Assembly: GCA_031420755.1 (NCBI GenBank)
Contig: JANONI010000177.1
Span: 1 to 57,696, forward strand
Source of the DNA: Bacteroidota bacterium
GTDB lineage: Bacteria > Bacteroidota > Ignavibacteria > UBA10030 > UBA8401
DNA: 57,696 nt
Reading direction: 5' to 3'
Shown here: positions 39,001 to 42,000 of the stretch, piece by piece
Layout of the letters: the number at the start of each line of letters is the position of its first letter
Numbering within the stretch: the first letter of the stretch is position 1
Position numbers: made by a program

Positions 39001-42000
39001 GAAAAAATTAGTTCAATAAAATAGTAATGTGTCATTGCGAACGACGACGAAGTCGGAGTGAAGCCTGCCCGTCCGGCAGGCGGGCAATCCCAACAATCAA
39101 TCTGGAGATTGCTTCGTCGCTTCAGCCAAAAAGATGGTCGAAGACTCGACTCTTCGAGCGGACAAGTCGCTCCTGGCAATGACCGAAATAAACAATATGA
39201 TTCCTTTAAATCATTATCTCTTACTTTCAGCGTTTATGTTTTGCTGCGGTGTCCTCGGCGTTGTTGTTCGCCGCAACGCAATCGTTATCTTTATGAGCAT
39301 TGAATTGATGTTGAATGCTGTGAATTTAACATTGATCGCGTTCTCGTCTTTCCTTGGCGATCCAACAGGACAAATACTGGTCTTTTTTGTTATGGTTGTT
39401 GCTGCGGCAGAAGCAGCGGTTGGTCTTGCTATTATTATTGCGCTGTATCGCAACAAACAAACTGTCTATGTTGATGAACTGAATATTTTGAAATGGTAAC
39501 TACAATTAATCTAACTTCTGAAATCTAAAAATCTGATATGTATCAATTCGCACCTCTTATCGTTCTGTTTCCGCTTGTTGGTTTTCTGTTCAATGGACTG
39601 CTCGGACGAAAAATTCAGCCAAAGGCTGATGTGCCTCGTGCGCAAAAAAATGAAACAATTGTCGGTGCTATTGGCACCATAGCTGTTGCGGTACCATTTT
39701 TTATCGCGCTTGGAATTTTCTTCGAGATGCTTTCACTTCCCGCCGCAGAACGTTCAAAAATTATTTCAGTATTTCAATGGATTTCCGCAGGTTCTTTTTC
39801 TGTAAACGTTGCGTATCAAGTCGATCAACTTTCTATTTTAATGACATTGATCGTTACCGGCGTAGGAAGTTTAATTCATCTGTATTCAATTGGATATATG
39901 CATGGAGATGCGGGTTTCTGGAGATTTTTCGCATACTTAAATCTTTTTATCTTCGCAATGCTCAATCTTGTTCTTGCAGATAATTATCTGTTGATGTTTC
40001 TTGGTTGGGAGGGAGTAGGATTGTGTTCCTATCTGTTGATAGGATTTTGGTATGACAGGAATTTTGAAAAAGGAACAACCGGCGACGCGGCAAAAAAAGC
40101 ATTCATCGTAAACCGCATCGGCGATTTCGGATTTCTGCTTGCAATGTTTCTCATCTTCAATACATTTGGTTCGCTCACATACGAAACAGTTTTTGCGCAA
40201 GCAGCGGGATTTTCAGTCGGCGATAACCTGATGTTCTGGATAACATTGTTGATGTTCGTTGGTGCAGCCGGAAAATCTGCACAGATTCCACTGTATGTTT
40301 GGCTGCCGGATGCAATGGCTGGTCCAACTCCGGTCTCTGCACTTATTCATGCTGCAACAATGGTTACGGCAGGAATTTACATGGTTGCGCGAAGTTCAAT
40401 TCTCTTTGCCCTTTCACCGACCACAATGGAAATTGTCGCAGTGATCGGATTGGCTACGGCATTTTTTGCCGGAACAATCGGTCTTGTTCAAAATGATATT
40501 AAAAAAGTTCTTGCGTATTCTACAGTCAGTCAGTTAGGATATATGTTTCTTGCATGCGGTGTTGGAGCATTTACAGCAGGATTGTTCCATGTAATGACGC
40601 ACGCATTCTTTAAAGCACTTCTCTTCTTAGGTTCCGGAGCAGTGATCCATGCAATGCATGATGAACAAGACATTCAAAAGATGGGCGGCTTGAAAAAATA
40701 TATGCCGTGGACATTCGGAACATTTTTAATCGGCTCGTTTGCAATTTCCGGATTTCCGCTTCTCTCAGGATTTTTTTCCAAAGATGAAATTTTGTGGAAA
40801 GCATTTGCCGACGGCGCACCATGGATGTGGGTGATCGCTGCGCTTGCCGCCGGTATTACGGCGTTCTACATGTTCCGTCTTGTTTCGCTGACATTTTTAG
40901 GAAAAGAGCGATTTTCCACCGGAGGCGGATCCGCCTCTGGCGGAGATCATCATCATGTGCATCCGCACGAAGCACCGAAAACGATGCTCATTCCATTGTT
41001 AGTGCTGGCACTGTTTTCAATTATCGGCGGGTATGTGGGAATTCCTCACGTGCTTGGCGGACATAATTATTTTGAAGAATTTTTAGGACCGGTGTTTGCG
41101 GGTGCAAATTCAAAAATGATGCTGCCGCTGCACGATTCTGCCGCGCTTGAACTTGGATTGATGGCTGGTTCGGTTGCGATCGGACTGTTTGGAATGTTTG
41201 CAGGATGGAAAATCTACACGCAGAAAACTGAAGTTGCTGAACATACGGCGAAGAAATTTTCAGGTCTCCACAAACTTCTTTGGAATAAATATTTTGTGGA
41301 TGAAATGTACGATGCCTTGATTGTCAATCCAATAAAACAAACATCAGATACATTCTTATGGAAAATATTAGATGTAAAGATTATTGATAATACTCTGAAC
41401 TTTTCTGCAAAGTTCGTTGAAGTGACAGCGAATATTTTCCGTCGCATTCAAACCGGAGTTGTGCAAAGTTATGCCGTTGTTTTTATGGCGGGAATTTTAT
41501 TTATTCTTGGTTATTTAATGGTGCGATAAACAGATCATTAGATTGTCAGATATCAGATATTTAGACATCGAACAATCTAACAGAGACATCTATAAATCTA
41601 AAATCTGATTTTTTAAATGCAAAATATTCTTACATACACGCTCTTTTCACCGCTCGTCGGAATCCTTTTATTGCTGTTCATTAATAAAGAAAAACAGAAT
41701 CTGATAAAATATATCGGCGTTGCAACTTCGCTCGTAACATTTGTTTTATCGCTTGTTGTTTATTTCGGATTCTCCGCCGAAGGCGGATCCGCCTCTGGCG
41801 GAAATGCAGCAAATACGCAGATGCAATTCGTTGAACAATATCCGTGGATTTCGGGATTGGATATTTCATATTTCGTTGGCGTTGACGGACTTTCAATTCT
41901 TCTTATTGTTCTTACAACATTCCTCACGCCAATCGCACTTATCGCTTCGTGGAATTCAATCACCGACAGAATAAAAGAATATATATCGTTCATGCTGCTG

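Follow-up and report, generated by a model that had tools for sequence, protein, structure and literature searches.

A 30-nt double-hairpin repeat inserted in nuoL and nuoM of a Bacteroidota genome: a probable miniature mobile DNA element

Introduction

Selfish palindromic DNA inside protein-coding genes is already known from Rickettsia and from organelles. The mitochondrial DHEs, or GC-rich palindromic clusters, of fungal and algal organelles consist of two small adjacent hairpins, are dispersed and presumed mobile, and encode no protein. These organellar elements lie in intergenic as well as coding or variable regions, vary in length and differ in sequence from the repeat described here; to our knowledge, no TTY^RAA target has been assigned to them.

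In bacteria, the REP/REPIN sequences of the RAYT system are dispersed, imperfect palindromes of 20-40 bp with a GTAG or CGTC tag at one end (PMC3733652). They are short, GC-rich, patchy between species and occasionally found in genes, and are thought to spread via hairpins in single-stranded DNA (PMC3733652, PMC3116915). The RPEs of Rickettsia are palindromes of ~100-150 bp with a CGTC end and a conserved encoded peptide, that sit in frame within functional and often essential genes, whose proteins tolerate the added peptide in a surface loop (as summarised in PMC10969869, PMC3733652). PATEs, the miniatures of IS200/IS605 elements, insert seamlessly at a short specific target by hairpin-defined ends, but are much longer, bear guide sequences at distinct left and right ends, and recognise a target on the 5' side only (PMC6006769).

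Three insertions in two adjacent complex I genes

The locus lies in the window, that is, the whole 57,696-nt stretch of DNA analysed here, in which nuoL (39538..41529, + strand, 663 aa) is followed by nuoM (41617..43188, + strand, 523 aa). The sequence-only reading had pointed to one 33-nt sequence in frame in both genes, and the two stretches are indeed 30/33 identical, both containing an exact 21-mer, GGCGGATCCGCCTCTGGCGGA, that has two occurrences in the window, where 100 shuffles give an expectation of 0, and both encoding GGSASGG. Two details required amendment: the inserted unit is 30 nt, as given by an exact 30-nt gap in orthologues, and a third in-frame copy in nuoL (39615-39644) had been missed. 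The nuoL site 2 copy (40915..40944, + strand; TCCACCggaGGCGGA TCCGCCtctGGCGGA) is read in phase 0 as STGGGSASGG, NuoL residues 460-469, and the nuoM copy (41773..41802, + strand; TCCGCCgaaGGCGGA TCCGCCtctGGCGGA), also in phase 0, as SAEGGSASGG, NuoM residues 53-62. The third, partly decayed copy at nuoL site 1 (39615..39644, + strand; TCAGCCaaaGGCTGA TGTGCCtcgTGCGCA) encodes QPKADVPRAQ, NuoL residues 27-36, and is read in another phase than the other two, because in phase 0 its TCAGCC...GGCTGA stem would introduce a TGA stop. Because of its two inserts, NuoL is here 20 aa longer than the 641-643 aa typical of congeners. The nuoL site 2 and nuoM positions were confirmed to be non-homologous: NuoL residues 41-457 align to window positions 41701-42984 (~NuoM residues 29-456), so that NuoM residue 53 matches ~NuoL residue 65, not 460.

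All three nuo inserts are exactly 30 nt (10 codons) and are missing in all 17-19 orthologues, which come from the same genus except for one from the same order. At nuoL site 2, an exact 30-nt gap was observed in 19/19 orthologues, the empty site being CGA TTY^GAT CAT and the relatives reading ERF|DHHH. The nuoM insert likewise faces an exact 30-nt gap in 19/19 orthologues, with the empty site GGA TTY^GAT GCA and the protein FGF|DAAN, and nuoL site 1 faces one in all 17 orthologues covering it, with the empty site AAAAT^AAAAAAT. Absent from all 19 NuoL and 19 NuoM orthologues, the GGSASGG block is a lineage-specific insertion and not a product of shared ancestry, as the sequence-only reading had proposed. 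A fourth case is an ActB-like gene, also with a 30-nt insert and an intact ORF, whose site carries an insert in a single further congener (G003, with a differently decayed copy) and is empty in eight. Target duplication was absent in all four filled-versus-empty comparisons. The post-insert base departs from the empty-site consensus (G to A) at two of the four sites, including nuoM (A here, G in relatives), which leaves some latitude in the exact boundaries or chemistry. Other candidate host genes were less informative: a C320 oxidoreductase had no orthologue in 20 relatives to serve as an empty site, and kinase N-termini containing the element (C146, C250, C78) were rejected as intact host genes, their ORFs being merely 43-85 aa.

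A discrete 30-nt block has thus been added twice to nuoL, once to nuoM and once to the ActB-like gene, at TTY^RA-type sites (in the nuo genes, TTC^GAT twice and AAT^AAA once). The insertions clearly differ in age: at nuoM and nuoL site 2 the copies are near-perfect and confined to this species, and those at nuoL site 1 and in the ActB-like gene are decayed. The filled form was found in independent assemblies from two studies with 0 differences, and short-read contigs of two runs stop exactly at the nuoM copy. The contigs of four runs were all filled and contained no empty allele, excision product or transposition event, although assembler contigs drop rare variants. Overall, the sequence in nuoL and nuoM is best regarded as belonging to a repeat, a double hairpin of 30 nt, with the behaviour of a miniature mobile DNA element; a probability of about 0.85 can be given to this reading.

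Architecture and target of the element

The repeat unit consists of two adjoining 15-nt hairpins, each with a 6-bp stem and a 3-nt loop: T-NN-GCC-AAA-GGC-N'N'-A for hairpin 1 and T-NN-GCC-TCT-GGC-N'N'-A for hairpin 2. The consensus is TCCGCCAAAGGCGGATCCGCCTCTGGCGGA, flanked by TTY and RAA, and its master form is 3n long and free of stops. Copies share a conserved GCC/GGC core and T...A closing pair and co-vary at the inner stem positions, giving 7-9 stem types with pairing. Complementary bases occupy the outer stem positions in 103/120 and 106/120 copies, although the search left these positions free. Hairpins 1 and 2 differ in stem sequence in 56 copies, yet each pairs within itself; the double-hairpin fold alone is therefore conserved, and the element has inverted-repeat ends only where its two stems coincide. 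The three window copies fold better as single-stranded DNA than shuffled sequence (z = -2.9 to -3.6). Two tandem hairpins, as the sequence-only reading had described, were obtained for the nuoM copy and the nuoL site 1 copy (z = -3.2 for the latter), but the minimum-energy fold of the nuoL site 2 copy, with its near-identical stems, is one long hairpin centred on GGATCC (z = -2.9).

The flank logo over 120 copies, T62 T83 Y101 ^ R92 A94 A60, agrees with the empty sites described above. A trans-acting enzyme would propagate the element by recognising its hairpins, probably while the DNA is single-stranded or extruded, and joining the 30 nt seamlessly into the middle of TTY^RAA-like sites.

Family size and host range

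This genome contains 16 tandem 30-nt double hairpins and 54 perfect single units (0 in the shuffled control), and 11 exact copies of the 15-nt unit. A search of the genome for the 21-mer, as had been suggested, gave no exact match elsewhere, but one-mismatch versions were found at 4 other loci, besides the 16 double hairpins. The family is present in 12/31 related genomes, representing 8/12 genera (control matches 0), and in 12/12 labelled Ignavibacteria/Bacteroidota genomes, with 1-52 copies each, the 52 being in an Ignavibacteriales genome of 5.3 Mb. A 30-mer identical to the nuoM copy lies in a member of another family of the order (G019:C2:132775). More than 118 loci were found in distant phyla, including CPR bacteria, Bacteroidota, Omnitrophota, Gammaproteobacteria and one Nanoarchaeota genome, against ~1 expected by chance (596e9 x 2 / 4^20, our own estimate). 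Viruses were rejected as carriers, since a viral contig collection gave just 2 matches. About 35% of the copies (42/120) lie in ORFs of at least 200 aa.

Comparison with described systems

The element resembles REP/REPIN sequences in size and dispersal, with 30 nt and 16 tandem plus 54 single units against 0 in the shuffle, and shares with them a short, GC-rich, palindromic sequence, a patchy distribution between species and an occasional location in genes. It differs in its fixed 30-nt two-hairpin format and TTY^RAA target, and neither GTAG nor CGTC occurs in its consensus and flanks. Moreover, REPs are mostly extragenic and lineage-specific, whereas 42/120 copies of the element lie in long ORFs and near-identical copies are found across phyla. 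As with RPEs, the host ORFs are intact (nuoL twice, nuoM and the ActB-like gene) and their orthologues lack the insert. Unlike RPEs, the element is 30 nt long, lacks CGTC, encodes different peptides according to phase, and occurs in many phyla of non-rickettsial hosts. Hairpin-defined ends, seamless insertion and a short specific target recall the IS200/IS605 miniatures and may fit their single-strand transposition, but the logo is two-sided and no linked transposase was found in 30 Y1 neighbourhoods. The absence of target-site duplication in the four comparisons sets the element apart from classical MITEs. The likeness to mitochondrial DHEs would lie in two adjoining small hairpins, dispersal and the lack of an encoded protein.

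No description of the element was found in the searchable literature, either by sequence strings or by keywords. It may represent an undescribed class of minimal mobile DNA, spread over numerous bacterial phyla and one or more DPANN archaeal genomes, with insertion machinery unlike that of characterised transposases; this broader proposal is tentative, with the odds somewhat against it. Such a class would be built on a modular pair of 15-nt hairpins with a 3n, stop-free master. It would insert seamlessly at the centre of TTY^RAA, including in tRNA T-loops and D-loops, in the apical loops of other hairpin repeats, and at Phe-Asp, Phe-Lys and Phe-Glu codon junctions. The machinery could possibly consist of small SLX1-like GIY-YIG nucleases lodged in tRNA genes. 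If the proposal is true, the element would widely and continually supply essential proteins of uncultivated microbes with loop insertions of ten residues.

What is new relative to the known cases is a unit of 30 nt, ~1/5 of the size of an RPE, that is preserved near letter-for-letter across phyla, with a defined target and no recognisable transposase. It would be the smallest mobile DNA unit described and would point to an uncharacterised insertion mechanism. The element accounts for 10-residue insertions, Ser/Ala/Gly-rich or QPKAD-type, that are lineage-specific and lie in essential proteins of metagenome-assembled genomes. It also breaks short-read assemblies and can mislead alignment, gene-tree and structure-prediction work, and its copies form a natural map of insertion-tolerant loop positions. 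The window is an unusually clean case outside CPR, with three insertions in the neighbouring complex I genes nuoL and nuoM of a single species and 17-19 empty sites for each.

Candidate machinery

Two candidate movers were considered, each of which is unlikely. The first is a Y1 HUH (RAYT or IS200-IS605-type) transposase that would mobilise the repeat as a REP/REPIN-like non-autonomous element. Enzymes of this type recognise single-stranded DNA hairpins and insert beside a short specific sequence without target duplication, and the co-varying stems, the sequence-specific target and the lack of target duplication are all in keeping with them. Active RAYT/REP-type biology is indicated by the 10 Y1_Tnp genes in this genome, 7 of which are flanked on both sides by their own hairpin repeat, and Y1_Tnp was found in 28/37 distant element-bearing genomes, including CPR genomes of 0.6-1.4 Mb. 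However, the element itself flanks 0/10 of the Y1 genes here and none in 20 neighbourhoods from four CPR genomes, so that in these 30 neighbourhoods neither a RAYT gene flanked by the element nor a REPtron containing it was observed. Y1 genes are also equally common in relatives without the element, and the element-bearing G024 has none. The lack of a GTAG or CGTC tag argues further against this mover, as does the symmetric logo TTY^RAA, the targets of IS200/IS605 elements being one-sided. Classic pairs of a RAYT and its cognate hairpin, distinct from the element, are also present in this genome.

The second candidate is a link to cassettes of small (~85-100 aa) SLX1/YhbQ-like GIY-YIG nucleases lodged in tRNA genes, in which the element would be a cassette terminus or the nuclease would open the way to insertion by cutting hairpin or loop DNA at TTY^RAA; a role of this kind appears doubtful. 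Double hairpins were found 22-340 nt from small GIY-YIG ORFs at G001:C19, G003:C1:1414451, G028:C248 (two) and G019:C1 (two, of which one has its second hairpin decayed), where a rough estimate gives ~0.1 of ~58 by chance, and the same adjacency was observed in the CPR loci L153, L114 and L088. The small GIY-YIG ORF at G001:C19 is an open frame of 87 aa at 229-489. The adjacency is thus significantly enriched, at ~9 loci in two phyla, with a recurrent order: a displaced tRNA fragment containing the element, the GIY-YIG ORF and an intact tRNA. The element sits in the displaced fragment exactly at the D-loop (GGTT^GAAT) or the T-loop (GGTTC^GAGTCC), and on contig C43 of this genome a unit lies in a displaced T-loop fragment behind a GIY-YIG ORF. 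A precedent is SegB of phage T4, which PMC2330249 describes as a free-standing homing endonuclease of the GIY-YIG type with a tRNA-gene region as its target.

Nevertheless, GIY-YIG matches beyond the single UvrC-sized one occur in 30/31 relatives, including 18/19 without the element, and GIY-YIG/tRNA cassettes lacking it are numerous (L191 and L192; here C48, C124 and C316). Less than 5% of the copies lie near a small GIY-YIG gene, the three nuoL/nuoM copies being far from any, and we know of no GIY-YIG nuclease that catalyses strand transfer. The adjacency has a simpler account, namely that displaced tRNA fragments are neutral DNA with an ideal TTC^GAA target, and the enrichment may be indirect. 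The tRNA-like flanks are displaced partial fragments beside intact copies; element-interrupted tRNA genes were rejected after ARAGORN detected no tRNA across any junction in the joined flanks of 120 copies.

Wider searches for a carrier gave little. The 12 element-bearing and 19 element-free relatives cannot be told apart by Y1_Tnp or GIY-YIG at the Pfam level. All-against-all BLAST of ~2000 ORFs at 118 loci returned only generic families and a 4-locus GIY-YIG cluster, and a recurrent neighbour protein family was discarded. An autonomous form would have an ORF between two units, and this genome has none. A unit pair on C212 was dismissed as such a form, lying in repeated sequence with hairpins that are not the element.

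That sequence presumably resembles the B12 box of cobalamin riboswitches.

Effects on the encoded proteins

The reading frames of nuoL (despite two inserts), nuoM and the ActB-like gene stay open, owing to the 3n length of the element and the lack of a stop in the phase used. The encoded peptide, SAEGGSASGG-like or QPKAD-type, depends on the phase, of which at least two are used. The 30 nt would be transcribed and translated into ten extra residues, Ser/Ala/Gly-rich or QPKAD-type, that probably lie in loops between helices of both subunits, where they would just be tolerated. When mapped on solved complex I structures, as the sequence-only reading had advised, all three sites fall in gaps, i.e., loops. 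The nuoL site 2 insert aligns to the gap between ...FLGEER and HPHEAP of Thermus thermophilus Nqo12 (chain 4HE8_L), and the nuoM insert to the gap after ...FRFD of Paracoccus denitrificans NuoM (chain 8QBY_M). In ORFs, the phase distribution is 28:3:11, where the availability of TTY^RAN predicts 50:10:39%; selection was rejected as the source of this bias, which mostly follows the position of TTY^RAN in codons, the deviation not being significant.

It is very unlikely that the element is instead an RNA-level intervening sequence, removed or processed in transcripts and not translated. A strand-specific role in RNA would predict the orientation bias in ORFs (34 vs 8), and the TTY...RAA flanks are able to close a three-way junction. 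Stem variants that create stops in phase 0 nevertheless occur in the other phase, which is relevant only if the insert is translated, the phases are near the TTY^RAN expectation, and no ribozyme or splicing motif known to us fits 30 nt.

Highly improbable is the view that GGSASGG is a selected functional motif, e.g., a flexible linker of complex I, with the DNA palindrome as a by-product: the inserts do lie in loops, and Gly/Ser/Ala runs can be palindromic because the reverse complements of GGN are Ser/Ala/Pro/Thr codons (NCC), but nineteen close relatives function without the insert, the element DNA is also non-coding and in other phases gives unrelated peptides (QPKAD...PL...), its stems co-vary at the nucleotide level, and the same peptide encoded by divergent codons, which the sequence-only reading had named as contrary evidence, was found in none of the 19 NuoL and 19 NuoM orthologues.

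Equally improbable is local gene conversion or duplication between nuoL and nuoM, paralogous genes whose copies lie 843-858 nt apart with an exact run of 22 nt in common: the positions are non-homologous, conversion is unsupported because the flanks share only ~5 nt (GATTY and RAT), a third copy in nuoL has different stems, the same 30-mer recurs in G019 and near-identical copies in many phyla, both sites fit the family-wide target logo, and a family dispersed in this genome, its relatives and distant phyla makes conversion unnecessary, so the earlier proviso of a 21-mer confined to the locus together with signs of conversion did not materialise.

A single unit in the window

The related unit that had been noted in non-coding DNA is present as a single 15-nt hairpin at 14073..14087 (+ strand; TCCGCCtctGGTGGA), preceded by ...ACTTG. 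Other hairpin repeats also have this single-unit variant within their loops, and the arrangement of a unit followed by CAAGT or CAGGT also tips the cccgaaatct...agatttcggg and gtgccactcac... hairpins.

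Thirty-nucleotide insertions in complex I genes

The hairpin repeat in nuoL and nuoM of this Ignavibacteria genome (G000) provides a clean and datable example of a miniature insertion element that is widespread and apparently undescribed so far: a 30-nt tandem of two 15-nt hairpins, each with a 6-bp stem and a 3-nt loop. The sequence-only reading had proposed an inserted element from a 33-nt double hairpin found in both genes, and observation and interpretation are upheld overall. The two stretches, at 40915-40947 and 41773-41805, lie in frame within the NuoL (39538-41529, 663 aa) and NuoM (41617-43188, 523 aa) ORFs; their 30/33 identity was confirmed, and their common exact 21-mer exceeds chance (0 matches in 100 shuffles). 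The two form hairpins rich in GC (~73% by our own count, versus 40% genome-wide), and folding is better than for shuffled sequence in all three copies in the window (z = -2.9 to -3.6). The third copy, at nuoL 39615-39644 (TCAGCCaaaGGCTGA TGTGCCtcgTGCGCA; site 1), had been overlooked, and the inserted block is exactly 30 nt rather than 33.

Codon alignments were made with orthologues from 18 same-genus genomes and one of the same order. Exactly 30 nt are missing in every orthologue at nuoL site 2 (40915-40944) and at the nuoM site (41773-41802), as they are at nuoL site 1 in 17 of the 17 orthologues covering it; the insertions are thus absent from relatives, as the inserted-element reading holds. 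The empty-state peptides, the same in all orthologues, are ERF/DHHH (NuoL) and FGF/DAAN (NuoM). The inserts add STGGGSASGG between ERF and DHHH, SAEGGSASGG in NuoM (FGF-SAEGGSASGG-NAAN) and, at site 1, QPKADVPRAQ. NuoL has 663 aa, versus 641-643 aa in typical congeners, because of its two inserts. The empty sites are CGATTY^GATCAT (nuoL site 2), GGATTY^GATGCA (nuoM) and AAAAT^AAAAAAT (nuoL site 1), and comparison of filled with empty orthologues revealed no target-site duplication at the nuo insertion sites.

A fourth, decayed copy lies in an ActB-like gene (1047 aa) on G000 contig C289, where the empty site in eight congeners is AACGAATCG^AAATAT. In G003, a more distant congener without the nuo inserts, this site is also filled and its copy has decayed differently; therefore, the insertions differ in age. 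The ActB-like site reflects either two separate hits or precise loss or transfer of copies. Of the four filled sites, two (window 41803 and C289) have A as the first base after the element, where empty orthologues have G (nuoM GAT to AAT; ActB-like TCG^AAA); the ActB-like site of G003 has T. The difference arose either by substitution after insertion or as a trace left by the insertion chemistry.

In alignment with T. thermophilus Nqo12, NuoL site 2 falls in a gap flanked by ...FLGEER and HPHEAP...; against P. denitrificans NuoM, the NuoM site coincides with a gap following ...FRFD. NuoL site 1 is located between the first two hydrophobic segments. We take these positions to be the TM14-TM15, TM2-TM3 and TM1-TM2 loops, respectively. 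On the simplest reading of the sequences, the ten extra residues would be tolerated loop extensions.

All three inserts recur with 0 differences in contigs of independent sediment metagenomes from two studies, one contig of 7.4 kb spanning all three, and no 30-nt skip at the nuo sites was seen in these assembled contigs. Short unrelated contigs from the same sediment samples match the element alone. Public assemblies of this organism from two metagenome runs (X1 and X3) break exactly at the nuoM copy (41771-41802), with contigs ending at 41800/41801 and the next starting at 41771/41775. The element breaks short-read assemblies, and the fragmentation of G000 into 440 contigs may be partly due to it.

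Distribution, structure and target of the element

The generalized unit is T-NN-GCC-loop-GGC-N'N'-A, two such 15-nt hairpins being adjacent, usually with loops AAA and TCT in one orientation. The 3.0-Mb genome G000 contains 54 perfect units, whereas a shuffled version has 0, and its tandem 30-nt copies number 16. Further hosts include the ActB-like gene, an 836-aa molybdopterin oxidoreductase and an SCO1-like protein. Of 31 related genomes, 12 have the 30-nt pattern, representing 8 of 12 genera, and the control gave 0 hits; G019, from another family, has a copy identical to that of nuoM elsewhere in its genome. The genomes labelled Ignavibacteria/Bacteroidota carry the element in 12 of 12 cases (1-52 copies each). 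Their NuoL is 61-66% identical to that of the window, as is the NuoL of same-order relatives, and for one labelled record the coordinates and scores coincide with those of relative G025; the organism of the window is therefore most likely a member of the Ignavibacteriales, broadly defined.

A scan of one genome per prokaryotic species with the pattern GCCAAAGGCNNATNNGCCTCTGGC, for which ~1 chance hit is expected by our own estimate, gave at least 118 loci. The matches listed include many candidate-phyla-radiation (CPR) lineages, Ignavibacteria and Bacteroidota (among them the isolate Marivirga aurantiaca), Omnitrophota, Zixibacteria, Elusimicrobia, Gammaproteobacteria, Planctomycetota, Kiritimatiellia and one Nanoarchaeota genome. 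Among the 120 copies from the matches listed, the commonest form is TCCGCCAAAGGCGGA TCCGCCTCTGGCGGA, and the outer three stem positions, unforced by the search, are complementary in 103/120 and 106/120 copies. These copies have 7-9 paired stem types, and 56 combine hairpins with different stems, each internally paired. Because mixed-stem copies still pair within each hairpin, they show the double hairpin to be the conserved structure; in copies with two identical stems, folding into a single long hairpin is a competing outcome.

The flanks of these 120 listed copies give the logo T62 T83 Y101 ^ R92 A94 A60, consistent with the empty sites of nuoL, nuoM and the ActB-like gene. Among the same matches, 42 of 120 copies lie inside ORFs of at least 200 aa, 25 of them in the SAKGGSASGG phase and 8 in the PPKADxPLAx phase. 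Their phase distribution (28:3:11) is near that predicted from how TTY^RAN is placed relative to codons (50:10:39%) and so requires little selection as an explanation; the orientation bias in the listed ORFs (34 versus 8) is not accounted for by this placement. Only the TCCGCC-type master has no stop codon in any of the six frames. A TCAGCC or TGAGCC stem produces TGA in phase 0, and G000 copies of this kind are read in the other phase.

Single 15-nt units followed by CAAGT/CAGGT-like bases occupy precisely the apical loop in two further families of repeats, a ~100-nt cccgaaatct MITE-like palindrome and a gtgccactcac hairpin (G000 C149:2019, C274:10644, C30:1183, C203:335 and C63:5788); thus, the loops of one hairpin family are landing sites for another. 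The element also occupies the same position in three short G000 ORFs of 43-85 aa (C146:597-626, C250:6146-6175, C78:327-356). Their starts resemble the N-termini of Ser/Thr kinases (MIGQTISHY...KILEKLGEG), but they have the appearance of a gene fragment that was duplicated, not of intact kinases. In some genomes the element recurs with a strict period of 50, 100, 140 or 326 nt inside larger tandem repeats (G027 C9:42419-43008; G072 C2:1106811-1107840, C1:154526-154655 and C4:2137097-2137778). Two TCCGCC-TGA-GGCGGA hairpins in G000 (C212:370-384 and 1290-1304) lie inside repeated sequence containing AGCCAGGAGACCTGCC, which resembles the B12 box of cobalamin riboswitches, and are probably riboswitch stems, not element copies.

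Known repeats and candidate movers

Classical MITEs generate target duplications, whereas the element does not. Mitochondrial double-hairpin elements are probably its nearest analogue in form. Neither the element nor its sequence turned up in the literature that could be searched. RPEs, reported from Rickettsia (PMC10969869), share its in-frame lifestyle, but are ~150 bp rather than 30 nt long.

The element is most likely inserted by a hairpin-recognising, target-specific activity supplied in trans; no autonomous form of it was found in G000, and viruses were not notable carriers. That a Y1-type enzyme moves it is doubtful: Y1 genes, although found in 28 of 37 distant carriers, are equally common in element-free relatives, and the element flanks none of the 10 Y1_Tnp (RAYT-like) genes of G000 (3 Mb) and no Y1 gene in 20 neighbourhoods from four CPR genomes. 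It thereby differs from REPs, whose defining features are a GTAG or CGTC tag and RAYT genes that they flank (PMC3733652); the tag, too, is absent. Seven of the 10 G000 genes instead each have their own hairpin repeat on either side; these repeats include GATGCC-N3-GGCATC, GCGGAAC-NGA-GTTCCGC, GACACCTCT..GGTGTC (GACACC type), atccccgaaatct...agatttcggggat (cccgaaatct type) and gtgcgactcac...gtgagtcgcac. Together with these repeats, the Y1_Tnp genes, found outside the window on contigs C159, C87, C377, C392, C84, C431 and C374, make this genome unusually rich in parallel RAYT/REP systems.

A causal link to GIY-YIG proteins is likewise doubtful. Clustering of ORFs neighbouring element loci singled out a small GIY-YIG ORF, and distances of 10-340 nt separate the element from such ORFs in four relatives (G001, G003, G019 and G028) and at CPR loci, where ~0.1 of ~58 would be expected by chance on our rough estimate. 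The recurrent order is a displaced tRNA fragment whose D-loop or T-loop is precisely where the element sits, then the GIY-YIG ORF and then the intact tRNA, and the same kind of cassette is present on G000 contig C43. However, GIY-YIG matches other than the UvrC-sized one occur in 30 of 31 relatives, the element is missing from many cassettes, and a displaced T-loop (GGTTC^GAATCC) is in itself an ideal neutral target. A Y1-type and a GIY-YIG-linked mover are about equally probable, and the rest of the probability falls to some other enzyme.

Small GIY-YIG ORFs (63-110 aa) directly adjoin tRNA genes in G000 (C43:1627-1950, C48, C124, C316 and C367) and in relatives (loci L187-L192), some in tandem arrays of 2-3. 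On their far side lies a duplicated 5' or 3' tRNA piece, and these pieces frequently have small hairpins inserted in the D-loop, anticodon arm or T-loop.
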